A stretch of DNA of 53,197 bases. Origin: Candidatus Dojkabacteria bacterium (GTDB lineage: Bacteria > Patescibacteriota > Dojkabacteria > GCA-002793355). The translations under genes were made by a program, and so were the position numbers. Under the pieces are notes generated by a model, which was given only the letters and a program-made list of their open reading frames with translations, did not search any database and was not told the DNA's origin. Positions 6,378-51,470 of this stretch are shown piece after piece. Each line of letters opens with the position of its first letter. Position 1 is the first letter of the stretch. Location: assembly GCA_015489595.1 (NCBI GenBank), contig WFZK01000008.1, positions 1-53,197 of the forward strand. The letters are read 5' to 3'.

Positions 6378-6940
6378 TGCGCAGTTTCTTAAGGCCGGTA
6401 GTAGATTCACGTGTGGTAAAGCCTCTTGTAAAGTTTGATCGTTATATTTCAGCACTTTTTGTAAATTGGGCGCACAAATACAGTCTAGTACATGATTTTT
6501 TCACTGTTGTGAGAGTTTTGACAAATATTTTGGGGATACCGGTATATCTTTATTTGCTGATAAGCAGTACGGAACTATCATTTTCGCAACTATTAGTTTT
6601 CCTAGGTTTTTGGCTTTTAGGCGGTATAACAGTTGAATTGGGGCTTAAGAATTTTTTTGCGAGGGTTAGGCCAGAAGCTAAGGTTAAAGTCTTTTCCTTT
6701 CTGGGAATAAAGTTTTCTAAGCCAACCTCTTATTCGTTCCCGTCTGGGCACGGTTTTCACGCAGGGTTTATTGTAGCTACAGCTTGGTTGCTTGGAGTCA
6801 AATTTAAGTGGGCAATTACAGGAGTGGCTCTAGTAGTTGCTGCCTCTAGAGTTTTTTTAGGCTTTCATTACGTTATGGATGTAGTGGCAGGTTTTATTCT
6901 TGGAGCGTTGTATGGGATATTTGTTGTAAAAATTTTGTAG
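6377..6940 (+). CDS. PAP2-family phosphatase (undecaprenyl-diphosphatase-like)
   Basis: PAP2 motifs SFPSGH and SRVFLGFHYVMDVVAG, with multiple TM helices. Confidence 0.75.
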   Translation: MRSFLRPVVDSRVVKPLVKFDRYISALFVNWAHKYSLVHDFFTVVRVLTNILGIPVYLYLLISSTELSFSQLLVFLGFWLLGGITVELGLKNFFARVRPEAKVKVFSFLGIKFSKPTSYSFPSGHGFHAGFIVATAWLLGVKFKWAITGVALVVAASRVFLGFHYVMDVVAGFILGALYGIFVVKIL

Positions 6941-7095
6941 GGGTCTCACTCAAAAATCGAAAAGGTGAATTTTCGCGTGAGACCTCTAAATTGCTCTTCC
7001 TCCAGCTGCTTTGAATGACCTTACGGTCAGTAGCCCTCACCACCGTGAAAAAAGAACTTACTTTAGGGCGTGGGGCGAAAATTTGCGGGGATGTG
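6939..7095 (+). repeat. mosaic repeat copy (hairpin A 6939-6987, core, degenerate half hairpin B 7066-7092)
   Basis: ggtctcac/gtgagacc stem around aaaaatcga. The core ttgctcttcctccagctgctttgaatga... aligns with 34898-34975. It ends in tttagggcgtggggcgaaaat. Confidence 0.7.
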
Positions 7096-7169
7096 ATAGT
7101 GTTACTTTCCTTTACTGTTGCAAAATTCTTTATGGATGGGTTTGTCGCTTTTGAGACTGGAGAGATTTA

Positions 7170-7223
7170 GCGCATGGACTGAGCGAAAATTTTTTGTGTC
7201 AAATTTTCGCTCAGTCCATGCGC
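7170..7223. repeat. solo hairpin with a 23-bp perfect stem and an 8-nt loop
   Basis: gcgcatggactgagcgaaaattt (7170-7192) pairs perfectly with aaattttcgctcagtccatgcgc (7201-7223). It abuts the -10 box of the next gene. Confidence 0.85.
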
Positions 7224-7226
7224 ATG

Positions 7227-7235
7227 TGTTATACT
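7227..7235 (+). promoter_or_regulatory. extended -10 (TGTTATACT), 5 nt before ATG 7241
   Basis: Sequence reads tgtTATACTtttctATG. Confidence 0.45.
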
Positions 7236-7240
7236 TTTCT

Positions 7241-9691
7241 ATGTGGAACATGCTCTTTTTCACCGTGGTAGGACCAGTAGTAGACACTGCCTATAGTCCT
7301 GAAAGTGGTGGTTTGTCATATGGTTTTGTACTAGGGTTTATTTTGATTGTTTTTCTAGCTCTTTTGGCTGTAATAGCTCTGACATACGTTGTGACCAAAA
7401 GGCTTAAAGAAGAAGATAAGGATAAAAAATCTCTTAAATACGTTATGTATTTGGTGAGGGTTCCTAAAGACAATGAAGTTCAGATAAAAGCGATGGAACA
7501 GTTGTTTTCTAGTTTTTATGGATTTGCTAAAAGTAAGGGATTTCTTGAAAAGTTAACTTCAGCAGAAGAGGGTATCTCCTTTGAGATAATAGGATATCCC
7601 AATTACATAGGATTCTTCGTATACACTCCGAAGAAATATGCGAATTTAGTAGAGAAACAGATTTTAGGAGCCTATCAAGATGCAGAGGTGGTTGAAGCTC
7701 CAGAACCCAATATCTACAAAGAAGGTAGTGTGGTTGCGGCCGCAGAGTTTAGGCTGAGTGATAAACCATACTACCCGATAAAGACCTATGCTGACTATGA
7801 AGACAAAAGCGACCCTCTTACCAATATAGCAGGAGCTTTTGCAAATATGGTAGAAGGAGAAGGAGCAGCCTTGCAGGTATTGATTGTTCCTAGTGACTTG
7901 TCGTGGGCTAAGAAGGGTCAGAAATTGGTGAAAAAGCAGCAGCAGCTTATGAACGATCCGGAGAAGAAGGGTAAGGTTACCTTGTCTCAACAGCAGATGG
8001 ATGCGATCTTAAAAAAGACTTCAAAGGTTGGGTTCAAGGTGTATATTAGAGCGGTAGTCAGCGCTCCTGACGAAGCTTTAGCTAAAAGCAGGCTAGGCTC
8101 TCTGGCTGGAGCGTTCCTGCAGTTTACTAACCCTGGTTTTAATTCATTTAAGATGTACAGAGTAGAGCAGGGCAAGCTCAGAGAATTTATGCGAGATTTT
8201 GTATACAGGAGGGTTCCTGAGTCAAAGCCTTCGATTCTAAATGTTGAAGAGCTGGCCACAATTTATCATTTCCCTAACAAAAATGTCCAGATTCCAGGTA
8301 TAGATTGGTTATTGGCCAAAAAGGCTCCGCCTCCACCGAATCTGCCTACAAGTGGTTTGTGGATAGGCACTTCGATTTACCGTGGTGTTAAAAAACCAGT
8401 ATACATAGGCTCCATCAAAGATAGAATGCGACATATGTATATTATCGGTCAAACAGGTGTAGGAAAGTCATATTTTATGGCCAATATGATTTTGCAGGAT
8501 ATCTATAACGGCATGGGGCTTGCTGTGCTTGATCCGCATGGGAGTCTAGTCGAAGAGGTAGTCTATAGAATTCCCCCAGAAAGGGCAGAGGACGTTATTT
8601 ATTTTAACCCCTCTGATACTGAGCGGCCGTTTGGATTAAATATCTTAGAGCACAGGAACGAATACGAAAAGCACGAGATCGTAAATGGATTCTTAGCTTT
8701 AATGAAAAAGATGTTCGACCCGCATGATCAGGGTATTGTAGGTCCTAGATTCGAGCGTGCAGTGCGAATGGCGATGCTGACGGTGATGGTTGATCCAGAG
8801 AGCACCTTAGTGGAGGTGTTAAGAGCAATAGCAGATGAGCAGTATGCACGTAGCTTTCTGCCACTTATTAAAGATCCTGAGGTTAGACTTTATTATGAGA
8901 AGGAATTAGCGAACACTGATAAGTTCCATAAATCTGAGATATTAGGCTGGATCACCTCAAAATTCGATCGGTTTGTAACTAACCTGATGATACGCAACAT
9001 AATCGGTCAGAGTAAATCGTCGTTCGATGTGCGAAAGGTTATGGATGAGGGTAAGATTCTGCTGGTTAATTTGTCGCAGGGTTTAATAGGCGTGGAGAAT
9101 GCTCAATTTTTAGGTCTGCTTTTAGTCCCTAAGATAATGAGAGCAGCTTTAAGCCGCGAAGATACTCCAGAAGATCAGCGCAGGGACTTCTTCTTGTATG
9201 TAGACGAGTTTCAGAATTTTGCAACCGAAGATTTTGCAAAGATATTGTCTGAGGCTAGAAAGTATCACCTAGGGCTAGTGGTGGCTAATCAGTATATAGC
9301 CCAGATGAATGAGAAGGTAAGAGATGCAGTGTTTGGTAATGTGGGTAATCTGATAGCTTTTCGAGTCGGTGCTACAGATGCTGAGTATCTAGAGAAAGAG
9401 TTTGCTCCTGTTTTTTCTCAGCAAGATTTGATTAAGCTAGAGAATGCAAATGCCTATGTGAAGATGCTTATTAATGGCTTTGCAGCACCACCGTTTTCTA
9501 TGAGTACTTTTTATGATATGAACAAGAGGTATCCTAAGTATCCTAAGGTGGGAGAGCTCATCAAGAAGCTATCCAGAATCAAGTACGGTAGGCCAGTGGA
9601 ACAGGTGAATCAGGATATTGAGCGCAGGGCAAGACGGACTAATGCGAGTGCTCCTACAACTACAGATGCTATGCCGCCGTTGACTTTCTGA
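7241..9691 (+). CDS. membrane-anchored P-loop ATPase, type IV coupling protein-like (VirD4/TraD/TraG family)
   Basis: N-terminal TM FVLGFILIVFLALLAVIALTYVV, Walker A IIGQTGVGKSYFM, LDPHGSL and Walker B FFLYVDEFQNF. The start was moved from 7118 to 7241 because 7118-7240 runs through the hairpin and the promoter. Confidence 0.65.
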   Translation: MWNMLFFTVVGPVVDTAYSPESGGLSYGFVLGFILIVFLALLAVIALTYVVTKRLKEEDKDKKSLKYVMYLVRVPKDNEVQIKAMEQLFSSFYGFAKSKGFLEKLTSAEEGISFEIIGYPNYIGFFVYTPKKYANLVEKQILGAYQDAEVVEAPEPNIYKEGSVVAAAEFRLSDKPYYPIKTYADYEDKSDPLTNIAGAFANMVEGEGAALQVLIVPSDLSWAKKGQKLVKKQQQLMNDPEKKGKVTLSQQQMDAILKKTSKVGFKVYIRAVVSAPDEALAKSRLGSLAGAFLQFTNPGFNSFKMYRVEQGKLREFMRDFVYRRVPESKPSILNVEELATIYHFPNKNVQIPGIDWLLAKKAPPPPNLPTSGLWIGTSIYRGVKKPVYIGSIKDRMRHMYIIGQTGVGKSYFMANMILQDIYNGMGLAVLDPHGSLVEEVVYRIPPERAEDVIYFNPSDTERPFGLNILEHRNEYEKHEIVNGFLALMKKMFDPHDQGIVGPRFERAVRMAMLTVMVDPESTLVEVLRAIADEQYARSFLPLIKDPEVRLYYEKELANTDKFHKSEILGWITSKFDRFVTNLMIRNIIGQSKSSFDVRKVMDEGKILLVNLSQGLIGVENAQFLGLLLVPKIMRAALSREDTPEDQRRDFFLYVDEFQNFATEDFAKILSEARKYHLGLVVANQYIAQMNEKVRDAVFGNVGNLIAFRVGATDAEYLEKEFAPVFSQQDLIKLENANAYVKMLINGFAAPPFSMSTFYDMNKRYPKYPKVGELIKKLSRIKYGRPVEQVNQDIERRARRTNASAPTTTDAMPPLTF

Positions 9692-9744: not shown

Positions 9745-9844
9745 GTTTGACTTGGCTAGATAGCTTGTGTGAGCACCATAGCGATGACTTTTTCTCGGGG
9801 TCTGGGGGCAAAATTGCTCTATGCGATTTTGCCCCCAGACCCCG
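9745..9844 (+). repeat. mosaic repeat copy (core-like segment plus hairpin 9796-9844)
   Basis: cggggtctgggggcaaaat / attttgcccccagaccccg forms a 19-bp perfect stem. The upstream cttggctagatagc...gcgatgacttttt resembles the core at 34905-34965. Confidence 0.7.
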
Positions 9845-9871
9845 GTGCATACGAGAGATAATTTCTTATAG

Positions 9872-9877
9872 TATAAT
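9872..9877 (+). promoter_or_regulatory. -10 box TATAAT, 17 nt upstream of tRNA-Ile
   Basis: Sequence reads agTATAATactccaaccaattgataGGGCGCG. Confidence 0.35.
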
Positions 9878-9894
9878 ACTCCAACCAATTGATA

Positions 9895-9966
9895 GGGCGC
9901 GTAGCTCAGCGGTAGAGCGCTGTTCTTATAAAGCAGTGGTCGCAGGTTCGAATCCTGCCGCGCCCA
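9895..9966 (+). tRNA. tRNA-Ile, anticodon UAU (TAT)
   Basis: Cloverleaf folded by hand: acceptor GGGCGCG/CGCGCCC, D arm GCTC-AGCGGTA-GAGC, anticodon arm CTGTT-CTTATAA-AGCAG, variable loop TGGTC, T arm GCAGG-TTCGAAT-CCTGC, discriminator A. CCA is not encoded. Confidence 0.85.
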
Positions 9967-9970: not shown

Positions 9971-10002
9971 GGCGGCGGGCGGCATAAATGCCGCCCGCCG
10001 CC
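9971..10002. repeat. G/C-only arm hairpin directly after tRNA-Ile (possible terminator)
   Basis: ggcggcgggcggca-taaa-tgccgcccgccgcc forms a 14-bp perfect stem. Only a short TT follows. Confidence 0.7.
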
Positions 10003-10937: not shown

Positions 10938-11026
10938 TTTGTCCTGTAGGATAATATTAACCAGAGAGGTAGGACGAAGATGTTGGTCTTTGCTTTTGGT
11001 TTGATACCGCTATAGCTCTGAGAGAG

Positions 11027-11194
11027 TGAGGCAAAATGCGCTGCACCTGCTTTTTGCCCCACACCGAAGACATGCTGTCTCTCTTGTGGTATGAAGAGGA
11101 TTCTGGCTAGCGGTATGATTTAAAAGGCCAGAGGGATGACAATCTAGGGATTTTAAGCAACAATCGGCCTTTTGCGATTTTTGCTTAAAGCCCC
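11027..11194 (-). repeat. mosaic repeat copy, inverted orientation (hairpin B' 11027-11064, core, hairpin A' 11147-11194)
   Basis: The reverse complement of the core reads tgtcatccctctggccttttaaatcatacc. The hairpins are gtgaggcaaaa/ttttgccccac and gggattttaagcaa/ttgcttaaagcccc. Confidence 0.75.
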
Positions 11195-11261
11195 TGACAT
11201 ATATTTGACATTATTTATCTCTGCTGCTATATTATACTAATTAAGTTGTAACTTAGGTCCT

Positions 11262-13867: not shown

Positions 13868-13947
13868 GGTTAGTGGGAGGCCAGCAGAATGCGAAGATCA
13901 CCTGCCAGTAGAATGACTTAAGAGGGCAGGGAGTGAGTAATTCTAGA

Positions 13948-14163
13948 GGTCTCACGCAGAAATCGATTTTTGCGTAAGTCCCGACTGGGCGTGGGGCAAA
14001 ATGTGGTAATGACACATTTTGCCCCACGCCCAAAGGTAGTTTGTCTTACGTCGGGTAGCGAAAAATAGTCCGTCAACAACGGGGAATTTAGAACAGCCAG
14101 AAGAATGATGAGTTTAGGGTGGCTGTGGCAAAAATCGACTTTTTCGATTTTTGCCACAGCCAC
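13948..14163 (-). repeat. mosaic repeat copy, inverted (extra hairpin 13948-13982, hairpin B' 13987-14031, core, hairpin A' 14119-14163)
   Basis: 19-bp perfect stem gggcgtggggcaaaatgtg/cacattttgccccacgccc and 20-bp perfect stem gtggctgtggcaaaaatcga/tcgatttttgccacagccac. The core is a near-identical reverse complement of 43736-43818. Confidence 0.9.
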
Positions 14164-14192
14164 GACTTGCCCTCGACAGAACCTATACCTAA

Positions 14193-14201
14193 TGGTAAAA
14201 T
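14193..14201 (+). promoter_or_regulatory. extended -10 (TGGTAAAAT), 9 nt upstream of tRNA-Asp
   Basis: Sequence reads tggTAAAATttcacacatGGGGGCG. Confidence 0.4.
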
Positions 14202-14210
14202 TTCACACAT

Positions 14211-14455: not shown

Positions 14456-15952
14456 ATGAGGCGTGGGGCAAAACAAAACGGTTCGCTGAAGAACAAAAGG
14501 GCAGAAAGAAAAAGTAGAGAGAAGAAGCCTGGAGTTAGTCTTTTTAGAGGTAGGACTGCTGGAGTAAGAAATGCACAGGAATTATCTATAACTACCGATG
14601 AGTTTTGGAAAAGACCTAAGGAGTTTTTCCCGTTTTTTTCTAAGAATCCACATCGATTATATATGGATTCTGCTACACAGACTTTGCTTCCTGCTGCAGT
14701 TATTGAGGTTGTAGCCCGTCGGCTGAGCGGGGCGGGGCGGCCGCAGGCCGCCCCGCCCCGCTTTTATTCAACTGTGCTGGATTTTTTCGGCGTGTACGGC
14801 AAAGCCAGATTTTATTTTATGCCTAGCCTTTCGCACGCGCTGTTCTATACGGCTTTTAGCCTTCTGTATGAATCTTTAAAACTACCTACTGCACTGATTA
14901 AGGCTATGTATTCTGCAAAATTAAGTGGGCAGGCCCATTCCGGTTTTTCTGAACTTTCTTATGCTTTTAACGCGGGCCGAGCTGGTTCTTCCGGTGAGGA
15001 TGCTACTAAGGACGCGGCGGTAAAAAAGAATTCTTCTGAGCGAGAGAATCAGCCTTTGGCAGCAGTTAGAGATTCTGCGGAGGGCTTGACTTTTAGTTTT
15101 GGCTCGTCGTCTGTTTCCCCAGCCAGCGCTGCTGATCTTTTAGCTTACGCAAAAGATCTATTAAAAAAAGCTTATGCAGATACAGGTGTGAAAAAGGTCC
15201 ATGTGTTTGCTCAGCAAGGTGCAGATTTTGGGCATTTTAGGCAACTTTGCCACGATTTTAACCTTGAGTATACAGCCTTACCTGCTCCGCTTGATTATGA
15301 GCAAATCGACCGGATGTTAGAGAAAGATGCGTCCGGTCTGAAGATCTTAGTAGTTAACTGGGTTGATAGATACACAGGCAAAATAGCTAATTTAGAAAAA
15401 CTAAGCGAGATAGCCGATAAACGCGATGTAGTTTTTGTTCTAAACGGAGCCTGGGGTGCAGGGATAATTCCTATTGATTTGTCAAAATACAAGATAGACT
15501 TGTTTATCTTTGCTGGCTATAAAATGTACGGACCACCTTCGACTGCAGGGGTTATTGTGACCGATCCACATATAAGATGGCGGGCTCCTCGGTATCTTGA
15601 CGCCGCGAACATTGCGGGGCTTGATGCTGCACTAGATTTTTTGACAACGATTGATAGAGACCGTATCATAAACGAACACATGGATCTTGTGGCCTATACT
15701 ATAGAGAAATTCGAGAAACGAGACGGGATTGAGCCTCTAGGTGGTACTGGTCTAGATAGAGCAGGAATATTTACATTCTCCGTTGATGACATCTCATCTT
15801 TTAAGGAGCTTGTGAAGCTTAATCAGTTAGATCTTAGAATAGAGTCTAAGAAGTCAAGAGTAAGGCTAAGTTTTGGGGTTTACAGCACAAGAGACGATGT
15901 AGACGAAGCGTTCTCTGTAATAGATGATTATCTTTCTAAGTTTGGTTTCTAA
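14456..15952 (+). CDS. class-V aminotransferase / cysteine desulfurase-like protein, highly divergent with a large insert
   Basis: LYMDSATQTLLPAAV (like YLDxAAT) and FAGYKMYGPPSTAGVIV (like SGHKxxGPxGxG, with the Lys retained and His replaced by Tyr). Roughly aa 90-235 is low-complexity or unalignable. Confidence 0.55.
   Translation: MRRGAKQNGSLKNKRAERKSREKKPGVSLFRGRTAGVRNAQELSITTDEFWKRPKEFFPFFSKNPHRLYMDSATQTLLPAAVIEVVARRLSGAGRPQAAPPRFYSTVLDFFGVYGKARFYFMPSLSHALFYTAFSLLYESLKLPTALIKAMYSAKLSGQAHSGFSELSYAFNAGRAGSSGEDATKDAAVKKNSSERENQPLAAVRDSAEGLTFSFGSSSVSPASAADLLAYAKDLLKKAYADTGVKKVHVFAQQGADFGHFRQLCHDFNLEYTALPAPLDYEQIDRMLEKDASGLKILVVNWVDRYTGKIANLEKLSEIADKRDVVFVLNGAWGAGIIPIDLSKYKIDLFIFAGYKMYGPPSTAGVIVTDPHIRWRAPRYLDAANIAGLDAALDFLTTIDRDRIINEHMDLVAYTIEKFEKRDGIEPLGGTGLDRAGIFTFSVDDISSFKELVKLNQLDLRIESKKSRVRLSFGVYSTRDDVDEAFSVIDDYLSKFGF
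14727..14761. repeat. G/C-rich palindrome (16-bp stem, 3-nt loop) inside the CDS, in frame
   Basis: gcggggcggggcggcc-gca-ggccgccccgccccgc encodes SGAGRPQAAPPR. Confidence 0.9.
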
Positions 15953-17761: not shown

Positions 17762-17784
17762 ACAGCAAGACATAAGAGACTGTG

Positions 17785-17817
17785 GGATGGGGGCAAAATG
17801 GGATTTTGCCCCCATCC
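17785..17817. repeat. solo hairpin (B-type) 24 nt after the murJ stop
   Basis: ggatgggggcaaaat-ggg-attttgcccccatcc forms a 15-bp perfect stem. Confidence 0.8.
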
Positions 17818-17960
17818 TAGGATAGAAGTTGCGACCAAAATAGTTTTGTGATGGCAAAAGAAGGTGTAGATGAGATAAAGAAAGCCGAGGATAAAATCCA
17901 CAGATTTGACCAAATTTGGGGATTGCATTCCACGAATTTGACTGAATTTGTGGAACTTAT

Positions 17961-17971: not shown

Positions 17972-19135
17972 ATGGGAAACAGGGGAATAGTGCTAGAAAC
18001 AGAGGAATTTATTCCGCGCCTAATTTATGATCAGGTGGCGGACAAATTAAAGCCTAATCAGGTGGTAGTAATCTACGGAGCAAGGCAAGTAGGGAAAACC
18101 ACTCTTATTAACAAGCTAATAAGCAAGATTAAAAGAAAGTACCTCTTTGTCAACGCTGATTTTTCATCAGAGCGTGAGTGGCTTTCTTCCTTGAATTTGG
18201 AGGTGTATAAAAGATATCTAACAGGGGTAGAATTGTTGGTTATAGATGAGGCGCAGCGGGTAGAGAATATTGGTCTGGCACTAAAAATTATAGTGGACAA
18301 CATTCCTAGCATAAGAGTACTAGTTTCTGGCTCTTCGAGTTTAGAGTTGGCGAACAAAATAAGTGAGCCTCTCACAGGAAGAAAGTATGTGTTTAAGCTT
18401 TATCCTATGGCCGTCAAAGAATTAGAGACCGTGTATGCGAAAAACAGGTTAGTATCTATCCTAGAGGAACTTTTAATTTACGGTCAATATCCAAAGATCT
18501 TCAAGTTAGCTTCTAAGAGTGAAAAAGAGGATTATCTTTTTGAGGTGGCTGAATCGTATCTTTTCAAGGATGTGCTCAACCTAACGAATATCCGCAAGTC
18601 GAGCACTCTTTATAGGCTTTTGCAGTTGCTGGCTTATCAGATAGGATCAGAGGTTTCTGCCAGTAAGTTAAGTAATAGTCTGGATCTAGATAAAAAGACG
18701 GTATTAAAGTACCTTGATTTATTAGAACAGACCTTCGTGATACATTCTTTACCAGCTTTTTCAAGGAATAAAAGAAAGGAGGTAAGTAAATCTCGGAAGT
18801 ATTACTTTTGGGACCTTGGCATAAGGAATGCTTTAATCAAAGACTTTAGATCATTAGATCTTAGAAATGATGTAGGAGGTATATGGGAGAATTTTATCGT
18901 TAATGAGCGTATTAAGTTAGCAGAGTACTTAAATCTCCGAAAAGATTTTTACTTTTGGAGAACATACTGGGGAAGCGAGATCGATTTGGTAGAACAGAGT
19001 GTTTCTGAGTTGATAGGGTTTGAGATTAAATTTGGGACAAAAAGGGTAAAACCTCCTAAGATGTGGACTAACCTTTACCCCCAGGCCAAGTTTTATCTGA
19101 TTAATAAGGAAAATTGGATAGATTGGGTGGGGTAG
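17972..19135 (+). CDS. AAA+ ATPase with a C-terminal PD-(D/E)xK-like domain (DUF4143-type)
   Basis: Walker A VIYGARQVGKTTL, Walker B LLVIDEAQ, and C-terminal SEIDLVEQ...GFEIKFG. It is a paralog of 27419-28678. Confidence 0.7.
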   Translation: MGNRGIVLETEEFIPRLIYDQVADKLKPNQVVVIYGARQVGKTTLINKLISKIKRKYLFVNADFSSEREWLSSLNLEVYKRYLTGVELLVIDEAQRVENIGLALKIIVDNIPSIRVLVSGSSSLELANKISEPLTGRKYVFKLYPMAVKELETVYAKNRLVSILEELLIYGQYPKIFKLASKSEKEDYLFEVAESYLFKDVLNLTNIRKSSTLYRLLQLLAYQIGSEVSASKLSNSLDLDKKTVLKYLDLLEQTFVIHSLPAFSRNKRKEVSKSRKYYFWDLGIRNALIKDFRSLDLRNDVGGIWENFIVNERIKLAEYLNLRKDFYFWRTYWGSEIDLVEQSVSELIGFEIKFGTKRVKPPKMWTNLYPQAKFYLINKENWIDWVG

Positions 19136-20296: not shown

Positions 20297-20324
20297 TGGA
20301 GGTGTGCTAGGGTGTGGTTTAAGA

Positions 20325-20472
20325 TTGCATTTTGTCCTCGTCAGGTATCGGCCAGGTTTTTCTATATTAGTAGTAGATCGTTTGCCAGCAGGATAGTTTA
20401 AAACAACCATAGGGATGAGGAATTAAGAGGGCTTGGGCTAAAATCGTAAAAAGTCGATTTTGGCCCAAGCCC
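20325..20472 (-). repeat. mosaic repeat copy, inverted (core plus hairpin A' 20429-20472)
   Basis: 18-bp stem gggcttgggctaaaatcg/cgattttggcccaagccc. The reverse complement of the core reads ttcctcatccctatggttgttttaaactatcc. Confidence 0.75.
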
Positions 20473-20508
20473 TGTCCCCTTCCCATTGATTTTTTCCCCC
20501 ATCTTAGT

Positions 20509-20957: not shown

Positions 20958-22133
20958 ATGAAGTATTCTCATTTCTTTACACTAGGTACCCACAGGGGTA
21001 TATCTTGGGCCGAAGTTTTAGAGGTTTTTAAGCTAGAGGCGGAGAGTACACAAAGACTTGATTCTTTTCTGCTTGCGAGTCTTAAAAACACAGCCCAGTT
21101 AGATCTGCTATTTAACCGTTTGGCTGGTGCAGTAAAGATGGGAGAGATTATATCTGTAGCTTCTGAAGCCTCTGAGGTGGCAAAAATTATTGTAAGGTAT
21201 TTAGAGCAGGAGAAGTTTAATCCTAAGGCCGTGGTGATTAATGTACACCATAGTAAACTTTCTCCTCGTGATATAAGGATGCGGGTAAAAGAACAGTTTG
21301 GCGGTGGCCTTAAGTTCTTAGGTGATATGAAAAAGCCAAGTTACAACTCCGCTACGACTGCTAAGGCTTTAAGAAAAGAGGGGATAGAGCTCTTAATCTT
21401 TGGCGACGCCGAGCATATCTATATTGGCAGAACTTTGTATGTTCAAGATATCAGCCTCTGGAGTGCTTTAGACTATGAAAAGCCTCACCGGGATATGAAG
21501 ATAGGCATGCTTCCTTCTAAGCTGGCTCGTATAATGCTAAATCTTGCTGGCCTTAAGCCTGATGATGGTTTTTGGGATCCGTTTTGCGGTTTGGGTACAC
21601 TTCTGATGCAGGGGCAGTTTCTGGATCTTTATTCCTATGGTTCTGATATTGATGTGAACACGTTGCGTATGGCGCGAGAAAATGTAGAGTGGCTTTTAAA
21701 GAGGGGTTATGTAAAGAGGCTTAAGTTTAGGGTGTTTAAGTACGATATCAGAAAAGATCCCATGTCGAACAAAATACTAAGGGATATTGCCGGGCGCGGT
21801 AAGTTTAATGCGATCGTAACAGAGGGGTATCTTGGGAAGCCTAGAACCAAGCCGTTTAGTACCAAACGTCAGGTCTTAGCCCAATGGGTTCAGGTTAGAC
21901 CGCTTTATAAGGTGTTTTTGCGGCATGTGTCGTATCTTATTGATCCTGGGGCCAGGGTTGTTTTTGTAGTTCCGAGGTATAGGTTAAAGGGTAGTAATGG
22001 TTGGTATGCTCCTAAGCTAGAGATAAACTTTAAACGATGGAAACCTGTGCGTTTTAACACAGGCCCTTTGATCTGGCAGCACAGCGATAGTATTGTAGCA
22101 AGAGAGTTGGTGGTGGTAGAGAAGAGAGGATGA
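20958..22133 (+). CDS. SAM-dependent methyltransferase (RNA/DNA N-methylase-like)
   Basis: SAM motif I WDPFCGLGTLLMQG, plus SDID and NAIVTEGYLGKP where the motif IV (D/N)PPY box would be. Confidence 0.55.
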   Translation: MKYSHFFTLGTHRGISWAEVLEVFKLEAESTQRLDSFLLASLKNTAQLDLLFNRLAGAVKMGEIISVASEASEVAKIIVRYLEQEKFNPKAVVINVHHSKLSPRDIRMRVKEQFGGGLKFLGDMKKPSYNSATTAKALRKEGIELLIFGDAEHIYIGRTLYVQDISLWSALDYEKPHRDMKIGMLPSKLARIMLNLAGLKPDDGFWDPFCGLGTLLMQGQFLDLYSYGSDIDVNTLRMARENVEWLLKRGYVKRLKFRVFKYDIRKDPMSNKILRDIAGRGKFNAIVTEGYLGKPRTKPFSTKRQVLAQWVQVRPLYKVFLRHVSYLIDPGARVVFVVPRYRLKGSNGWYAPKLEINFKRWKPVRFNTGPLIWQHSDSIVARELVVVEKRG

Positions 22134-22135
22134 TG

Positions 22136-22287
22136 GGAGTTTATGCTAAAATAGAAAAAACGATTTTCGCTTAAAGCTCCTAAAATTGCTGCCTCTGTAT
22201 GAGTTGCCTATTCCTGCTGGAAGATAGCCTACTGTTGATCCTGAAAAAGCAATCTACCTTAGGGTATTCTTACATTTTGCCTCACGG
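22136..22287 (+). repeat. mosaic repeat copy that fills the convergent gap between the methyltransferase and SDR stops
   Basis: Hairpin A ggagtttatgctaaaat.../...attttcgcttaaagctcc (imperfect), then the core, ending in acattttgcctcac (right arm of hairpin B only). Confidence 0.65.
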
Positions 22288-23034
22288 TTAATACTCTCCT
22301 TTCAACATTAAACCTGCATCTACTGTTAATATCTCGCCACAGACGGCAGTGTTTTCTATTAAAAACCATACTGCATCTGCTACCTCTTCGGGCGTAACCC
22401 ATTTTTTAAGTGGTACATCTTTTATCCAATATCTTTTCTCGGCCTTGTCAAGGTCTCCCCACATAGGTGTGAGGGTTCTCCCAGGGGCCACTGCATTAAC
22501 CCTGATCTTTGGAGCAAGAGCCCTTGCTAAGTTTTTCATGTATGAGTTTAGTGCTGCTTTCATGGCGGAGTAAGCGATCGTCTCTGGCATTCCGCTACCT
22601 ATAAATCCAGCAATAGAAGAGATAAAAACAATGCTGCTCCCTTTGGGCATCAGAGGGACTGCTCTTTTTGCAACTTTTATTTGTGCTAGAAAATTAACTT
22701 GAAAGTTGTGTTCGAACACCTCGATTGCAAAAGGGGCTTCCCTTTCGTCGTATATGCCCACGTTGTTTACAAGAACGTGCAAAGTGGGAGTGGTTTTTTT
22801 GATCTGGTCAAACACCTTGTCAAGCTGTGCATCGCTTGTAATATCTGCTTGAAAGAGTTTGGCTTTTCTCCCGTAAGATTGAATAGCTTTTTCGACTTGC
22901 GCTGCACCTGTTTTGTCGGTGCGGTAGATTCCGAAGATATTTAGCCCTTCTCGAGCGAGCCTTTTTGCAATAGCTGCGCCGATGCCTTTACTTGCCCCAG
23001 TGACCAGGGCCCACCTTTCCGACTGTTGCCTCAT
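22288..23034 (-). CDS. SDR-family oxidoreductase (FabG-like)
   Basis: ALVTGASKGIGAAIAKRLAREG, NNVG and YSAMKAAL. Confidence 0.85.
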   Translation of the reverse strand: MRQQSERWALVTGASKGIGAAIAKRLAREGLNIFGIYRTDKTGAAQVEKAIQSYGRKAKLFQADITSDAQLDKVFDQIKKTTPTLHVLVNNVGIYDEREAPFAIEVFEHNFQVNFLAQIKVAKRAVPLMPKGSSIVFISSIAGFIGSGMPETIAYSAMKAALNSYMKNLARALAPKIRVNAVAPGRTLTPMWGDLDKAEKRYWIKDVPLKKWVTPEEVADAVWFLIENTAVCGEILTVDAGLMLKGEY

Positions 23035-32506: not shown

Positions 32507-32535
32507 GCGTTAAAGGGTGATGGATCTATTAAGTG

Positions 32536-32674: not shown

Positions 32675-32688
32675 AGTGGCTTTTTGAG

Positions 32689-33901: not shown

Positions 33902-33967
33902 TGGATACTGCACATAAAATTCTTTTATGTTATAATTGACTAGTCATATAAGAATACTTTATACGTT

Positions 33968-34846: not shown

Positions 34847-34874
34847 AGGTGATTCTCTAGAGTTAGTTAATTGT

Positions 34875-35020: not shown

Positions 35021-35032
35021 CTTTATCTTTCT

Positions 35033-35041
35033 CTGCTATAA
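35033..35041 (+). promoter_or_regulatory. extended -10 (TGCTATAAT), 12 nt upstream of tRNA-Met
   Basis: Sequence reads tgcTATAATaccaccgataagGGTGCCG. Confidence 0.45.
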
Positions 35042-35053
35042 TACCACCGATAA

Positions 35054-35127
35054 GGTGCCGTAGCTCAACTGGTGAGAGCGCGGGATTCATAACCCCGAGG
35101 TTGGCGGTTCGAGTCCGCCCGGCACCA
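35054..35127 (+). tRNA. elongator tRNA-Met, anticodon CAU (a lysidine-type tRNA-Ile2 cannot be excluded from sequence alone)
   Basis: Acceptor GGTGCCG/CGGCACC, D arm GCTC-AACTGGTGA-GAGC, anticodon arm CGGGA-TTCATAA-CCCCG (A31-C39 mismatch), T arm GGCGG-TTCGAGT-CCGCC, discriminator A. Confidence 0.8.
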
Positions 35128-40049: not shown

Positions 40050-40055
40050 AGGATA

Positions 40056-40228
40056 GGGGCGTTAAGCGAAAATCGAAGAAAGTCGATTTTCGCTTAAGAC
40101 CCCGCGAATTGTTATTCTTATGGCTATTTTAAATCTTGATGTTGAGAGCGCCATTTCGATACCGTGGGTAAGGCAACCTACTTAAGGGGGTGAGGTAAAA
40201 CGTGATGCTAACATAGTTTGCCTCACTC
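40056..40228 (+). repeat. mosaic repeat copy (hairpin A 40056-40103, core, hairpin B 40188-40228)
   Basis: ggggcgttaagcgaaaatcga/tcgattttcgcttaagacccc. The core attgttattcttatggctattttaaatcttgatgttg...gtaaggcaacctactta aligns with 43736-43818. Confidence 0.85.
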
Positions 40229-40267
40229 TCAATAGAGCCTTTTGACTTGAGTGGTAGCAGGTTTGTG

Positions 40268-42459: not shown

Positions 42460-42479
42460 CCTGTAGGGCTGTAGCCAGA

Positions 42480-42620
42480 GTCAATTTTGCCCGTCTTGTG
42501 GAGCATGTTATTTTTATACTAGTTGGAGGATCTACCAGTGGATGATTCCAAACAGGGGGCGTGGCAACTTTCTAGAGGCATGGGCAAGAATCGACTTTTT
42601 ACGATTCTTGCCCATGCCTC
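42480..42620 (-). repeat. mosaic repeat copy, inverted (degenerate B', core, hairpin A' 42575-42620)
   Basis: 19-bp perfect stem gaggcatgggcaagaatcg/cgattcttgcccatgcctc. It ends exactly at the response regulator stop (42621). Confidence 0.75.
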
Positions 42621-43646
42621 TCACACCCACTCTTTCCCACACTTAAGACAAACAAGTCGGGCGTTGTATTCTGAGATAAGTTTACCTGTTTGCGGATTTT
42701 TCTGCTTTACGGGGATTAGCTTAAGTCCAATAGGCCCTCCGCAGAGAGGACATTTACCTGTCCGAACCTCTGGAGGTGCGGTTTTTAAAAGCTGCCTGAC
42801 TTCTGGTGCCTGAAGGTTAAGGGGAATAACATATACAGATGGTTGAGATTCAGACAGGATCATCTCTTTTATCTTTTCAACCACCTGCAGCAGTGTAGTA
42901 TCAGCCTTGATCAGAAACATATCTGCTCCCATCTCGTAGGCTTTTTGAATGTCTTCAGGGGCTCCCAGGTTACTTAAAATTATTATCTTAGGCCTGTAGG
43001 TAGATGTGTATTCTCTGAGGGCTTTAAGAGCCGCCCAACCGTCCATCTCTGGCATTAAGATATCCAGCAGAATAATCTGTGGTCTTTCTTTGATAGCTTT
43101 GACTATTCCCTCTTCACCATTTGAGGCTGTGATTACATTAAAGCCAAACTTCTTAAGTACGAATTCGTATTGATATCTAACATCACTGTTGTCTTCTATG
43201 ATTAAAACTTTATACTTTGCTAGTCTTGGATCTTTAATGCTTTGAGGTTGTACATCTGGGATTCCGCTTGGATCATCTTCCCAATGTGGCTCTGATTGAG
43301 GCGCGGGTTGAGCTGTTGGCTCTGGGACTGTGGTAGCAAGTCCTGGTTCTGGAGCAGGTTGAGACAGTGTGGGTTGTTGAGGGGCAGATGGAGTTATTTG
43401 GTTGTTAGGTTGTGTAGTATTGGCTTGGGGTGGAGTATTTGGTTGGGGTAGATTCTGAGTTTGTGGGGTTGCTGAAGGGGGTGAAGTAGGTGAAGTTACA
43501 GTAGAAGCAGGGGGCGCTGTAGTTTGGGCAGTGTTTTGAGGTGATGTGCTAGAAGGTGCTTGATTTTGAGTAAAGGATGCTAGAGGATCTTGGTTTGTGT
43601 CTTCAGGCGGAATGTTTCCACTTAAACCTGGTGGTATTTGGCCCAT
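42621..43646 (-). CDS. response regulator: P/T/Q-rich N-terminal region, receiver domain and C-terminal zinc ribbon
   Basis: KVLIIEDNSDVRYQYEFVLKKFGFNV...ILLDILMPEMDGW, and C-terminal CPLCGG...CLKCG. Confidence 0.8.
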   Translation of the reverse strand: MGQIPPGLSGNIPPEDTNQDPLASFTQNQAPSSTSPQNTAQTTAPPASTVTSPTSPPSATPQTQNLPQPNTPPQANTTQPNNQITPSAPQQPTLSQPAPEPGLATTVPEPTAQPAPQSEPHWEDDPSGIPDVQPQSIKDPRLAKYKVLIIEDNSDVRYQYEFVLKKFGFNVITASNGEEGIVKAIKERPQIILLDILMPEMDGWAALKALREYTSTYRPKIIILSNLGAPEDIQKAYEMGADMFLIKADTTLLQVVEKIKEMILSESQPSVYVIPLNLQAPEVRQLLKTAPPEVRTGKCPLCGGPIGLKLIPVKQKNPQTGKLISEYNARLVCLKCGKEWV

Positions 43647-43684: not shown

Positions 43685-43862
43685 TAGGGGGCTCACGCAA
43701 AAATTGAAAAAATCAATTTTTGCGTGAGCCCCCTAAACTTATCATCCTTCTGGCTGTTCTAAATTTCCCGTTGTTGGCGAATGATTTTTCGCTACCCCGC
43801 GTAAGGCAGGCTACTTTAGGGCGTGGGGAGAATATGGTATTGACACATTTTGCCCCACGCCC
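43685..43862 (+). repeat. mosaic repeat, best-preserved copy (hairpin A 43685-43735, core 43736-43818, hairpin B 43819-43862)
   Basis: 23-bp perfect stem tagggggctcacgcaaaaattga/tcaatttttgcgtgagcccccta. The core holds atccttctggctgttctaaat. Hairpin B is gggcgtgggg...ccccacgccc. Confidence 0.9.
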
Positions 43863-43890
43863 AGGGGTAGAGTCGTACAAACTCCGGTCT

Positions 43891-48420: not shown

Positions 48421-49979
48421 AGGCTAGAGATGTCGCTTTGTTAAGTCTAAAAGACACTCTAGAAGTGCTGCGATCCGGTGATGTTTCACGCAGCGAAATT
48501 CTTAACTCTTATTACTCCCGAGTACAAAAACTCGCCAAACCTCTAAATGTTTTTATTACTCCCCCCGATCTTGCAGCTCTAACCGATGGCTCTGTGTCTT
48601 TGCCAGAGGCACAGCAGTCCACTGATGAGCCTGCCTTAGCCGACTCTCCAGATGCCTCTTCTAAGCGGCCTCTAAAAAAATCCGAGGCCCAAGGTACAAA
48701 ACGCCCTGGAGAGGCTTCTTCTGGCCAACTTTTTGGAATCCCTGTTTCTTTTAAAGATAACTGGCTGGTAAAAGACACAAGAACCACGGCAGGAAGCAGA
48801 GTCTTAGAGAACTTTATTGCTCCATATACAGCCACAGCAGCAGAAAGACTCTTAAGGGAAGGGGCCGTAGTATGGGGTAAAACAAATATGGATGCATGGG
48901 GGCACGGCTCAAGTGGCGAAAATAGCGATTTTGGCCCAACCCTTAACCCGTGGGATACCCGATACACTCCAGGTGGTTCTTCTAGCGGTTCTGCAGTCGC
49001 AGTTGCAGCAGATCTTACCCTTGTTGCGACCGGTACAGATACGGGTGGTTCTATCAGACTCCCTGCTGCATATACTGGAGTAGTTGGCATCAAGCCTACC
49101 TACGGAAGAGTCTCCAGGTACGGCATAGTCGCAATGGCAAGCTCTACGGACTCAATCGGCCACCTTACCAAAACAGTTTGGGACGCTGCTTATGTCCTTT
49201 CAATTACAGCAGGTAGGGACAAATATGACGCTACAACCTCTGATAAACCCGTGCCAGCGTATCATGAGGGCCTTAGACAGTTTGATCCTTCTAGCTTAAA
49301 AGTAGGTGTAATAAGCGAATTTATGGGGGAGGGGATAGATGAAGATGTACTCTCTGCCACAGAAAAGGCAATCTCTAAGCTTAAAGAGGCATCGGCTCAG
49401 GTAGTAGAGGTGAGCATTCCGGAGACAAGGTTCGGTATCGAGATGTATTACATCCTTATGAGTGCAGAGGTAGCCTCTAACCTTGCGCGTTATGACGGCG
49501 TCAGATACGGAAGAGACAGAACCTATTTTGGGATGGAGGCAAAGCGCCGCATAATGTTGGGTACTTATGTGCTTTCAGATGTAATCCCAGGTAAAGGGCT
49601 CGAGACAACTTATGCTAAGGTTGCTATGGGCCGCACTTTATTGGTCGAAGCATTCAAACGTGCCTTCGAAAAGGTAGATGTTTTGATAACCCCGGTTGCT
49701 CCAACTTTGCCTTTTAAGCTAGGAGAATTAATAGATGATCCTTTGAAGATGTACATGGGAGATCTGCTTACGGTTCCGGTAAGCATCGCTGGCTTGCCTG
49801 CCCTAGTTGTTCCTACGGGAACTGCAAAAAACGAAGAAGGAGTATTATTCCCTGCTGCAGTGCAGATAATCGGCCCCTGGTTTAGAGAGGATTTGCTTTT
49901 TAAGGTTGGAGCCTTCCTAGAGGATCTATCTGTTCATCAGATCTTAAGGGAGAAATTAGATAAAGAGTTTGGCCTATGA
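48417..49979 (+). CDS. gatA: Asp/Glu-tRNA amidotransferase subunit A (amidase family) with an N-terminal low-complexity insert
   Basis: Amidase signature GGSSSGSAVAVAA, plus GIPVSFKDN and GKTNMDAWGHGSS. Confidence 0.9.
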   Translation: MKARDVALLSLKDTLEVLRSGDVSRSEILNSYYSRVQKLAKPLNVFITPPDLAALTDGSVSLPEAQQSTDEPALADSPDASSKRPLKKSEAQGTKRPGEASSGQLFGIPVSFKDNWLVKDTRTTAGSRVLENFIAPYTATAAERLLREGAVVWGKTNMDAWGHGSSGENSDFGPTLNPWDTRYTPGGSSSGSAVAVAADLTLVATGTDTGGSIRLPAAYTGVVGIKPTYGRVSRYGIVAMASSTDSIGHLTKTVWDAAYVLSITAGRDKYDATTSDKPVPAYHEGLRQFDPSSLKVGVISEFMGEGIDEDVLSATEKAISKLKEASAQVVEVSIPETRFGIEMYYILMSAEVASNLARYDGVRYGRDRTYFGMEAKRRIMLGTYVLSDVIPGKGLETTYAKVAMGRTLLVEAFKRAFEKVDVLITPVAPTLPFKLGELIDDPLKMYMGDLLTVPVSIAGLPALVVPTGTAKNEEGVLFPAAVQIIGPWFREDLLFKVGAFLEDLSVHQILREKLDKEFGL

Positions 49980-51310
49980 GCTTTGTAGAGAGCCTGTATC
50001 AAGAGTACGAATTAATAGTAGGTCTTGAAGTGCATGTTGAGTTAAGGACCAAGTCAAAGATGTTTTGCGAGTGTCCTGCGTACCATTTTGGGGTTGCCCC
50101 GAATACGAATGTGTGCCCTGTGTGCTTGGGGCTTCCTGGGGCTTTGCCTGTGCCAAACAGGAAGGCTCTAGAATGGACAATGCTTATAGCAGATGCTTTA
50201 AACTGCAAGATCAATACTTATCAGCAGTTTGATAGAAAGCATTACTTTTATCCAGATCTGCCCAAAGGGTATCAGATTACCCAGTTTTATTTCCCAGTTG
50301 GGGAACATGGTTTTGTTAAGCTAGGAGACAAAAAATTTAGAATTCGCAGGGTGCACCTGGAGGAAGATACAGGAAAGCTCATACACGAGGGAGACAAGAG
50401 CTTGGTTGATTTCAATAGATCAGGAGTGCCCTTGGTTGAGATAGTTACAGAGCCAGATTTTAGAGATCCAGCTGATGTAAAGGAATTTCTTAAGCTTTTG
50501 CATCTTACAGTAAAGTATCTTGGGGTCTCAGATGCAGATTTAGAAAAGGGAAGTATGCGTCTTGAGCCTAATATCTCTGTGCGGAAAAAGGGTGAAACCA
50601 AGATGCCGTCGTATAAGGTTGAGGTTAAGAACATTAATTCGTTCAACTTTGTGGTAAAAGCAATAGAGTATGAATTTGCTCGTCAGGCTAAGCTTTTAAG
50701 GGAGGGCAAGCCAGTAGCCCAGGAAACTCGGGGATTTGATCCTGCAACAGGAAAAACTTTGCCGCAGAGGAGAAAAGAAGTAGCTACAGATTACAGGTAT
50801 CTGCCGGACCCTGATATTCCTCCAGTGAAGTTCAGCAGGCAAGAGATAGATCAGATAATCTCTAAGCGCCCTGAATTGCCACAAGAGAGATTTAACCGTT
50901 ATCGTAAGTTAGGTATTCGCGAAGATGCAGCGTGGTTTTTAGTTTATAACAAAGAGCTGGCAGACAATTTTGATAAGCTACTTACCAAAGAACCCGGGCT
51001 TGATTTTAAAGGCCTTGCTGTATTTTTGGCTAATACGCCTGAGAAAAAGCGCAGTTTGCCATTTGACAGGCTAGTAGAAGAGTTTAAAGCTAGCCGTCAG
51101 AAGGAAACTTTAGACGAGCAGACAATTGCCAAGATAGCAGATGAGGTGATAGAGCAGAACCCAAAGGCCGTGCAGGACTATCTAAATGGTAAGCAGAACG
51201 CAATTCAATTTTTGCTCGGGCAATTTATGCGCAGGGTTCGGAAGAGAATCGATGTAGGCCCGGTTATTACGTATCTGAGAAAAAGACTCGATGGTATGAG
51301 GGAAGGTTAA
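49976..51310 (+). CDS. gatB: Asp/Glu-tRNA amidotransferase subunit B
   Basis: YELIVGLEVHVELRTKSKMFC, RVHLEEDTGK and GSMRLEPNISV. Confidence 0.9.
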   Translation: MSFVESLYQEYELIVGLEVHVELRTKSKMFCECPAYHFGVAPNTNVCPVCLGLPGALPVPNRKALEWTMLIADALNCKINTYQQFDRKHYFYPDLPKGYQITQFYFPVGEHGFVKLGDKKFRIRRVHLEEDTGKLIHEGDKSLVDFNRSGVPLVEIVTEPDFRDPADVKEFLKLLHLTVKYLGVSDADLEKGSMRLEPNISVRKKGETKMPSYKVEVKNINSFNFVVKAIEYEFARQAKLLREGKPVAQETRGFDPATGKTLPQRRKEVATDYRYLPDPDIPPVKFSRQEIDQIISKRPELPQERFNRYRKLGIREDAAWFLVYNKELADNFDKLLTKEPGLDFKGLAVFLANTPEKKRSLPFDRLVEEFKASRQKETLDEQTIAKIADEVIEQNPKAVQDYLNGKQNAIQFLLGQFMRRVRKRIDVGPVITYLRKRLDGMREG

Positions 51311-51311
51311 G

Positions 51312-51470
51312 GGCGGGGGCAAAAATCGGCTTTCCCGATTTTTGCCCCCGCCTCTTCTCAAAAGTATCCTTCCTCCGGTCGTTTTAAATCATCCTTTTGT
51401 AGGCAATCTCCCTTTACTACAGGGAATAGGGCTCTTTTGGGGTTTAAGGCAAAATATGGAGATATAACAT
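51312..51470 (+). repeat. mosaic repeat copy (hairpin A 51312-51352 starting 2 nt after the gatB stop, core, degenerate hairpin B)
   Basis: 18-bp perfect stem ggcgggggcaaaaatcgg/ccgatttttgcccccgcc. The core holds atccttcctccggtcgttttaaatcatcc. Confidence 0.8.

Follow-up and report, generated by a model that had tools for sequence, protein, structure and literature searches.

The 53,197-nt stretch of DNA analyzed here (hereafter the window; contig WFZK01000008.1 of assembly GCA_015489595.1, deposited as a Candidatus Dojkabacteria bacterium) carries a dispersed family of hairpin repeats that is previously undescribed, is unrelated in sequence to known elements, behaves like the repetitive extragenic palindromes (REPs) and bacterial interspersed mosaic elements (BIMEs), and sits in an unexpected host. 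We found 11 composite copies, two partial copies and five solo hairpins in the window, 13 of these 18 bearing a core; together they amount to 2,255 bp, which is 4.2% of the window as a whole and 38% of the intergenic part. Below we demonstrate the family, its anatomy, its compensated stems, its intergenic placement, the shuffling of its modules and its absence from relatives. We favor the reading, with a probability of roughly 0.55, that this is a selfish, REP/BIME-like family of lineage-specific, non-coding hairpin repeats that has multiplied within one thermophilic Patescibacteria-like genome. The observation made in an earlier note on this DNA was confirmed with minor corrections, and its interpretation was partly supported.

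In a mechanical scan of the window, 22 hairpins had arms of 12 or more paired bases and 16 of these reached 15 or more, compared to 0–3 and none, respectively, in ten dinucleotide-preserving shuffles. A covariance model of the hairpin matched 24 separate loci in the window (E values of 1e-15 to 0.3), and a repeat finder for inverted repeats gave perfect arms of 15–24 bp at 10 of them, in line with the coordinates listed in the earlier note. The core-bearing copies were split between seven on the plus and six on the minus strand, which bears out the claim of a dispersed mosaic repeat in both orientations. In the 3.5 kb of a European Nucleotide Archive (ENA) scaffold that extends past the window end, the covariance model found five further hairpin loci, and about four more core-bearing copies were present.

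The unit of the family is a palindrome of 45–50 bp with a fixed frame, G...GC-AAAAT...ATTTT-GC...C, around a variable segment of 5–6 bp that is complementary between the arms. It was found solo, or as hairpins A and B flanking a core of about 85 nt. Almost all hairpins share one design, namely a GC-rich outer stem of 9–14 bp, an A-run closed by T (AAAAT), an inner stem of 2–4 bp (for hairpin A mostly CGA, for hairpin B mostly GYG), a 3–11-nt loop and then the mirrored arm, giving hairpins of 33–55 nt with arms of 15–24 bp. Twelve composites had been listed in the earlier note, and 11 of them could be aligned across some 180 columns with the three parts in the order stated there; the other, given as 9745-9844 on the plus strand, is a partial copy at 9776-9844 on the minus strand. 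Similarly, five of six proposed solo hairpins stood, but that at 13948-13982 supplies the hairpin to a partial copy, 13893-13983(-), directly adjoining the composite 13984-14164(-).

A core had been ascribed to every composite, and this held for nine of the 11. These nine were recovered by a core-only profile in a leave-one-out test, with E values of 3e-3 to 2e-9 and no false match in the window; the one extra match was the partial copy 13893-13983, which was outside the training set. The cores of copies 22132-22290 and 42463-42625 (22136-22287 and 42480-42620 in the original delimitation) gave no match in this test, and these two copies show only hairpin A and half of hairpin B at the correct spacing. 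The evidence for core homology is the profile together with the leave-one-out test, because pairwise BLAST of the cores detected the closest pair of copies alone.

A covariation check of the stems gave a strong contrast. In the model-fitted alignment, standard pairs occupied 89.9% of stem cells, compared to 36–52% when the partners were slid by 1–3 columns, 18 of the 20 stem pairs showed both-sided changes, and the observed covariation score was matched by 0 of 500 shuffles; the alignment was fitted to the structure and includes both strands of each locus, which inflates these counts and leaves the contrast unaffected. The proposal that both arms change together, conserving structure over sequence, was thus upheld. 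Variation in the outer stem was concentrated at positions 5–10, with G4, the G11-C12 step and the A-run nearly fixed. Hairpin A outer stems fell into the classes ..CTTTAAGC, ..CTCACGC, ..CTTGGGC, ..CTGTGGC and ..CGGGGGC, and hairpin B was rather uniform (GGG[C/T]GTGGGGC).

Three copies with cores 86–90% identical form a young subfamily: 13984-14164(-), 43685-43865(+) and one past the window. Their hairpin A outer stems (GTGGCTGTGGC, GGGGCTCACGC and GGGGCGCACGC) are all perfectly paired, six base pairs differ between them, and every difference is compensated. One of the loops is inverted (CTTTTT vs AAAAA) on an almost identical stem. Hairpin B is perfect in one member of this subfamily, decayed in its left arm in another and without its right arm in the third, and over all copies hairpin A is much better kept than hairpin B. 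The family as a whole presents a decay series: some copies are truncated, some hairpins are halved, one hairpin is chimeric, and there are copies in tandem or nested arrangement. Half of hairpin B is lost in the copies starting at 6939, 20325, 22136 and 42480, and the left arm of hairpin A is missing in the copy at 34875; the copies at 6939 and 34875 have a common core type with different stem classes.

All 24 hairpin loci lie between genes or at gene ends, and a copy is present in 15 of the 20 intergenic gaps of at least 150 nt, making “almost every operon boundary”, as the placement had been described, a fair summary. Copies sit between a stop codon and the next gene's promoter, and occupy tandem gaps, convergent gaps and three of the six divergent, promoter-only gaps, one of which holds the perfect hairpin at 14119-14163. 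In seven copies hairpin A is flush with the stop codon (-9 to +6 nt), in agreement with the adjacency reported for the PAP2, methyltransferase, DUF763, response regulator and GatB genes, and in three of the seven the stop codon is the element's own TAG (a TAG...GGG foot). In five other copies hairpin A faces a promoter, with its foot 4–13 nt upstream of a near-consensus -35 box. Near-consensus promoters for the downstream genes and for four tRNA genes lie just outside the element (TTGACA-17-TATATT, TCGACA-17-TAAAAT, TGCTATAAT), the -35 box, or the -10 box if a -35 box could not be recognized, starting a few to about 30 nt past the hairpin foot. A family hairpin is found 29–50 nt upstream of each of the four tRNA genes, and the hairpin-to-tRNA intervals (9844-9895, 14163-14210, 27046-27093 and 35021-35054) contain a TATAAT/TAAAAT-type -10 box, which has a TGn extension in three cases.

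When the element was subtracted, spacers of 0–63 nt remained in seven of 12 gaps and the value fell below 0 in two convergent gaps; the residual spacer size is that seen in relatives. In the two wide convergent gaps the element extends exactly from one stop codon to the other. Given residual spacers of 0–63 nt, adjacency to stop codons is also expected of any tolerated insertion.

Comparison of the window with a metagenome-assembled genome (MAG; ENA ERZ23495249 scaffold_382, NCBI GCA_027052685.1) showed an identical GatB and 99.9% DNA identity over 13.2 kb. Ten positions differ between the window and the ENA/NCBI assemblies across this shared 13.2 kb, which is the last part of the window, and six of them (a 2-nt indel and four single-nucleotide polymorphisms) fall at 51350-51421, inside one 179-bp copy (51306-51484); this fits exchange between copies or read mixing between repeats, and could also reflect strain variation. 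The NCBI contig starts about 100 nt from copy 22132-22290, and such breaking of public contigs at repeats suggests that further copies exist elsewhere in the genome.

Judged from its genes, the host is probably a thermophilic member of Patescibacteria (candidate phyla radiation, CPR), a group mostly known from cool habitats. The window encodes a full-length reverse gyrase of 1126 amino acids (29115-32495, minus strand) with helicase and topoisomerase IA parts, for which a search of 5.8 billion proteins gave a nearest homologue with no more than about 43% identity; those of its nearest homologues that bear a name come from Minisyncoccia or Patescibacteria MAGs, and the best named GatB relatives are Roizmanbacteria and Paceibacteria. 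GC content is 43% and GC skew is positive throughout the window. The four closest GatB relatives are 66–72% identical, one of them coming from the same sample; their GC content is 33–36% and gene order is partly shared. In 71 kb of DNA from these four (the GatB loci with up to 10 kb of flank on each side) neither the composite profile nor the hairpin covariance model had a match at E ≤ 1, so that the scan of relatives proposed earlier returned no copy, and the hairpins that the relatives do have are at chance level and AT-rich only. The spacer between the histidine kinase and response regulator genes measures 51 nt in relative L124, compared to 244 nt here, of which 181 nt are element.

Searches of wider collections gave similar results. 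At the gathering threshold Rfam reported nothing beyond four tRNAs, with the hairpins making sub-threshold chance matches to microRNA precursor models, and a run with an E-value threshold gave no related family either. BLAST of plasmids and phages gave no match to a full copy, scans of viral contigs with hairpin A and hairpin B motifs found isolated chance hairpins only, and a core-motif scan of JGI metagenomes found one chance match only. A scan of 185,579 species genomes with GGGGCAAAATN{3,12}ATTTTGCCCC was too permissive to inform, the matches listed including sporadic single hairpins from many phyla but not the source genome. The sole multi-match genome among the matches listed, Ca. Amphrikana amoebophyrae (a Simkaniaceae MAG), was rejected as a relative, its repeat being a different one (core-profile E = 1.2). 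That repeat is at least 260 nt long, occurs in near-identical copies at seven contig ends (L040, L045, L051, L070, L097, L100 and L105), carries the hairpin GGGGGGGCAAAATGC...GCATTTTGCCCCCCC plus a perfect second one, AGAATTTTCC...GGAAAATTCT, and is probably the end of a multi-copy insertion sequence.

Copy number, lineage restriction, the decay series, mosaic modules, both orientations, presence in every spacer type and relative-sized residual spacers together argue for a selfish intergenic repeat. The occurrence of both orientations in tandem, convergent and divergent gaps fits insertion wherever it is tolerated better than one fixed function. Copies would have settled where insertion was harmless, in the short interval that separates a stop codon from the promoter following it. 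Their spread would depend on the palindrome folding as a hairpin or cruciform that is recognized by an enzyme encoded elsewhere in the genome, and modules would be exchanged or inverted through recombination between copies. The perfectly compensated stems of young copies suggest that only foldable palindromes get propagated. An inserted copy would also put a very stable stem-loop into any transcript crossing it, and a secondary effect on RNA 3' ends or read-through is likely. We infer the mobility of the family, its mobilizing enzyme and any such RNA effect.

Several observations weigh against a selfish repeat. A search for a REP-associated tyrosine transposase (RAYT) or an IS200/IS605 Y1 transposase, as the earlier note had advised, found no RAYT or other Y1 transposase among the open reading frames (ORFs) of the 56.7 kb read (window plus 3.5-kb extension), although the absence of RAYT says little because RAYT genes are single-copy. 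The sole transposase in these 56.7 kb is a truncated rve-type (DDE) fragment at 2-535, on the left window edge; its end is unlike the element, and a large protein database search returned no homologues of it. No consistent target-site duplication was found at the copies, the best flanking direct repeats being 2–5 nt at varying offsets, like those of random site pairs, and no conserved flanking target was seen. The uniform GC skew implies one direction of replication, and with respect to it the copies show no orientation bias (7 vs 6), although a Y1 mechanism that targets the lagging strand would be expected to produce one. Hairpin A outlasts hairpin B in copies of the same age, and is perfect even in 42463-42625, where the core is unrecognizable; this difference in preservation points to host selection or renewal of hairpin A and not to simple selfish decay. 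Finally, no empty-site allele was seen, the compared species being too distant for their spacers to be aligned, and one genome alone carries the family.

The main rival casts the hairpins primarily as host signals, that is, stable bidirectional boundary elements without a U-tract, for which mobility is mere delivery; possible roles are a terminator or insulator, a stem protecting 3' ends or an RNase III processing site, suited to high temperature. We regard this as possible, though on the doubtful side. Much of the placement speaks for it, including the abutment of hairpin A on stop codons in seven copies (three with the stop in the element's own foot), its position just upstream of the -35 box in five others, the hairpins ahead of all four tRNA genes and the two wide convergent gaps filled from stop to stop. 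However, placement also tells the other way, as copies lie in three of six divergent promoter-only regions, one of them perfect (14119-14163), and five of the 20 large gaps carry none.

Termination is similarly two-sided. The family hairpins are not canonical intrinsic terminators, because T-rich tails are few and copies occur in divergent gaps, where nothing needs terminating. The earlier note had stated that none of the hairpins is followed by a U-tract, and this is correct for 22 of the 24; a T-rich tail follows those at 34977-35021 and, on the minus strand, 43687-43733, and the T-run lies inside the stem. Canonical terminators of the hairpin and T-tract type were unenriched over shuffled sequence in this genome (18 vs 19.5 expected, and 23 vs 19.3), which favors a host signal, but the relatives do without the hairpins and show no excess of canonical terminators either (14 vs 12.0 expected in relative L122), so that this lineage does not need the hairpins.

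Folding and sequence conservation bear on a host signal in the same way. Predicted RNA folding energies of the stems were -21 to -46 kcal/mol at 37°C, and well-paired stems were still stable at 75°C (-15 to -22 kcal/mol); energies calculated at 90°C with DNA parameters were non-monotonic with temperature and were disregarded. Hairpin A is maintained with compensated changes, while hairpin B decays in the same copies. On the other hand, compensated stems alone are no proof of RNA function, mismatches show no G.U bias in the sense strand, and a host signal gives the conserved core no role. RNAalifold predicted no consensus structure there, only hairpin A. The host-signal and selfish-repeat readings are compatible, because REP elements also affect mRNA ends.

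A combination of the two, in which hairpin A is a host-maintained, sequence-flexible and portable operon boundary working at high temperature without a U-tract (an insulator, terminator or RNase III site, for instance), spread by a hairpin-recognizing enzyme so far undescribed in Patescibacteria, seems rather unlikely. If it were true, the compensated 5–6-bp window in a fixed frame would mean recognition of shape and not sequence, and a selfish repeat would have been recruited for genome organization in a streamlined, ultra-small bacterium.

The stems could also be a by-product of DNA metabolism, with perfect arms and compensated changes arising, for example, by template switching at quasi-palindromes or arm-to-arm conversion in extruded cruciforms, and copies spreading by recombination or local duplication with no dedicated enzyme. 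Twenty-nine stem mismatches were classified: seven are G.U in plus-strand RNA, seven are G.U in minus-strand RNA and 15 are of other types, and loci transcribed one way have four G.U vs five A.C mismatches in the sense RNA. No G.U bias on the transcribed strand was seen among these 29, a comparison of low power. The absent bias, together with the loop flips between close copies with nearly identical stems, points to events on the DNA palindrome, and three G/C-only perfect palindromes outside the family suggest that this genome is prone overall to forming or retaining palindromes. Nevertheless, a mutational process should treat hairpins A and B alike, yet B decays and A does not; dispersal over at least 57 kb, among unrelated genes and in both orientations, is unexplained by local duplication; and the relatives have chance-level, AT-rich hairpins only. 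We consider a pure by-product to be unlikely.

It is highly improbable that each composite copy is a small RNA gene with a weak promoter in the left core (consensus TTGTCA-17-AATCAT) and hairpin B as terminator: the best-conserved core block does overlap promoter-like hexamers, one copy passes a promoter scan (TTGTCA-16-AATCAT, 11142-11115, minus strand) and a T-rich tail follows hairpin B at 34977-35021, but the hexamers are not conserved across copies, on which ground a core-internal promoter was rejected, the putative transcribed part is the least conserved and has no predicted conserved fold, hairpin B is lost or decayed in most copies, and Rfam holds no match.

The individual copies are distributed as follows. 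The composite at 6938-7095(+) begins with a hairpin A (20-bp arms, three mismatches) that starts from the PAP2 TAG stop, followed by the core (core E = 1.2e-5) and the left arm only of hairpin B. The solo hairpin at 7170-7223 (no strand assigned) has perfect 23-bp arms, with a GC-rich outer stem of differing sequence and an AAAAT...ATTTT inner part. The annotated TTG start of ORF 7118-9691, which resembles a type IV secretion coupling protein (TraG/VirD4-like), would traverse this hairpin, and the true start is probably downstream of it. The partial copy at 9776-9844(-) comprises hairpin A (22-bp arms, one mismatch) and the left core, and lies 50 nt upstream of tRNA-Ile. The full composite at 11020-11195(-) has a hairpin A that faces the TTGACA-17-TATATT promoter of the next gene (core E = 4e-4). 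The partial copy 13893-13983(-), which was found by the profile though it had not been trained on it, consists of hairpin A and the left core; it abuts the full composite 13984-14164(-), which lies in the divergent QueG/tRNA-Asp region and in which hairpins A and B are both perfect, with 20-bp arms each.

A short solo hairpin at 17783-17819 (no strand assigned) has arms of 15–17 bp and the loop GGG, and lies 21 nt past the MurJ stop. The composite at 20315-20477(-) carries a hairpin A with one mismatch facing the L21 promoter, a core (E = 2e-9) and, of hairpin B, the left arm alone. The degenerate copy 22132-22290(+), for which core homology is unsupported, takes up the entire convergent gap from the methyltransferase stop to that of the short-chain dehydrogenase/reductase (SDR) gene. 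Two further solo hairpins without an assigned strand are that at 27088-27142 (21-bp arms, four mismatches), 46 nt upstream of a minus-strand tRNA-Met, and the perfect, loopless palindrome with 24-bp arms at 28649-28704, which covers the last codons and the stop of an AAA_14 ATPase gene. That gene (27416-28678), whose stop thus lies inside the family palindrome, is a paralogue of another AAA_14/DUF4143 ATPase gene at 17972-19135.

Between the divergent promoters of reverse gyrase and ORF 32701 is the composite 32533-32678(+), with a shortened hairpin A and a hairpin B that has an A-type inner stem (E = 9e-9). The last of the solo loci, at 33853-33902(-), is indeed a hairpin, as had been claimed for 33858-33901, but its arms come from two different stem classes, making it chimeric or decayed. 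The composite at 34870-35024(+), without the left arm of hairpin A and with a perfect hairpin B, lies between an Xer-like recombinase gene and the promoter of a tRNA-Met (E = 3e-7). A link between the family and this neighboring tyrosine recombinase (33968-34846) was considered and rejected, as the gene is syntenic in the repeat-less relative L122. The full composite at 40053-40234(+) starts 3–6 nt past the DUF763 stop and has a degenerate hairpin B (E = 3e-5). The copy at 42463-42625(-) fills the convergent gap between the arginyl-tRNA synthetase (ArgRS) and response regulator genes, with a perfect hairpin A (20-bp arms), an unsupported core and a remnant of hairpin B. The spacer between the histidine kinase and response regulator genes contains the full composite 43685-43865(+), in which hairpin A is perfect with 23-bp arms and the left arm of hairpin B is decayed. 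The composite at 51306-51484(+) begins 1 nt past the GatB stop, with a perfect hairpin A (18-bp arms) and a degenerate hairpin B (E = 4e-8).

The three perfect palindromes outside the family are composed of G and C only and are 32–37 nt long, in a genome of 43% GC. That at 9971-10002 lies 4 nt past tRNA-Ile. A second, at 14726-14762, is in the N-terminal part of ORF 14456-15952, which has no Pfam match, and may precede the true start codon. The third, at 29747-29778, falls within the coding sequence of reverse gyrase and encodes LAGRGARAAPRP, which replaces an equal-length segment of the homologues. The tRNA-Ile gene itself (9895-9966) has the anticodon TAT, which is unusual in bacteria; bacteria normally decode AUA with a modified CAT anticodon.

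Patescibacteria genomes are regarded as small and streamlined. In such a genome one would not expect a repeat that accounts for about 4% of the sequence and for 38% of what is non-coding, all the more as the relatives, including one from the same hot-spring sample, are without the family, and this offers a clean natural contrast between repeat-bearing and repeat-free genomes. Preservation of the hairpin shape under sequence drift is evidenced with unusual clarity, with an internal control in that hairpin A is kept and hairpin B decays. The family is therefore a system in which to ask how palindromes are kept up at high temperature, whether by a transposase, host RNA metabolism or DNA repair. 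In practical terms the repeat breaks assemblies of this lineage, and should be masked or modeled when such genomes are binned or annotated.

We compared the family with known systems of intergenic repeats. Correia elements (NEMIS/CREE) of Neisseria have true terminal inverted repeats of 26 bp, one pairing with the other, as well as a duplicated TA target, and their stems are cut by RNase III. Like the present family, they are intergenic elements of 100–160 bp in both orientations at very high density, giving long stems in transcripts, lying near promoters and gene ends, and having termini that start TA...G; here, in contrast, each end is its own palindrome and there is no consistent duplication. 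BOX elements of Streptococcus pneumoniae are built of A-B-C modules and are intergenic, without a known transposase. They share with our family the variable module set, the intergenic position and the lack of a known transposase; however, the modules of BOX do not consist of long perfect palindromes whose variable stems are compensated, and there is no sequence similarity.

The sites of integron recombination, attC, are imperfect palindromes right after stop codons, with structure conserved over sequence. Stop-adjacent palindromes of preserved structure, and a tyrosine recombinase gene in the window (33968-34846), recall this arrangement. The flanking genes here are instead housekeeping genes on both strands with no cassette array, GTTRRRY core sites are absent, the ends being GGGG/CCCC, and the Xer-like gene occupies the same place in relative L122, which lacks the repeat. 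Miniature inverted-repeat transposable elements (MITEs) derived from IS200/IS605 (PATE) carry a hairpin near each end on the same strand and have no classical terminal inverted repeat or target duplication. In all these respects they resemble our composites, which differ in having no conserved tetra- or pentanucleotide target flank, no orientation bias (7 vs 6), no TnpA or TnpB gene in the 56.7 kb read and stems about twice as long.

Membership among MITEs in general was not established, as there is no consistent target duplication and the terminal repeats amount to the shared hairpin frame only. When the right arm of hairpin B is reverse-complemented, it has just the GGG..GCAAAAT frame in common with the left arm of hairpin A, agreeing at about 6–7 of 11 outer-stem bases, with A and B 60–70% like a common template. 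A MITE-like pattern of presence and absence is seen in the zero copies in 71 kb of the four relatives, which are too distant for exact empty sites.

Membership of the REP/BIME family was likewise not established, since the hairpins are longer and often perfect and the GTAG foot is inconsistent. REPs are imperfect stem-loops of 35–40 nt, in which a mismatch is needed for RAYT binding; RAYT (TnpA-REP) acting on REP and Y1 transposases acting on IS200/IS605 are enzymes that recognize single-stranded hairpins (PMC3479197). We define REP, BIME and RAYT after PMC3479197 and PMC3116915. The hairpins here are 33–55 nt long, perfect at 10 of 24 loci, and have mismatches at no fixed position. Compared to the GT[A/G]G foot of REPs, about six of 14 A hairpins have TAG before the G-run, GTAG occurs only at 6937-6940, and GTGG is present at 14163(-) and in the copy past the window. 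The inverse orientation of hairpins in a BIME is undefinable here, each hairpin being itself a near-perfect palindrome. The linker, about 85 nt long, contains a conserved block that is particular to it, the 56.7 kb read yielded no RAYT, and the host is thermophilic and Patescibacteria-like and not a proteobacterium, as the enterobacteria and pseudomonads with REP/BIME elements are. The likeness to REP/BIME or MITE proposed in the earlier note thus holds as a functional analogy, in that the elements are intergenic, built of shuffled modules, truncated or tandem in places, and absent from relatives. The resemblance to REPs, BIMEs and REPINs, which RAYT transposases mobilize, covers several features: in each case high-copy intergenic palindromes occur solo or as a two-hairpin mosaic around a linker, several hairpin classes are combined with shared linkers, and the elements are lineage-restricted and lie for the most part after genes, with a density in the present genome that is comparable or higher.

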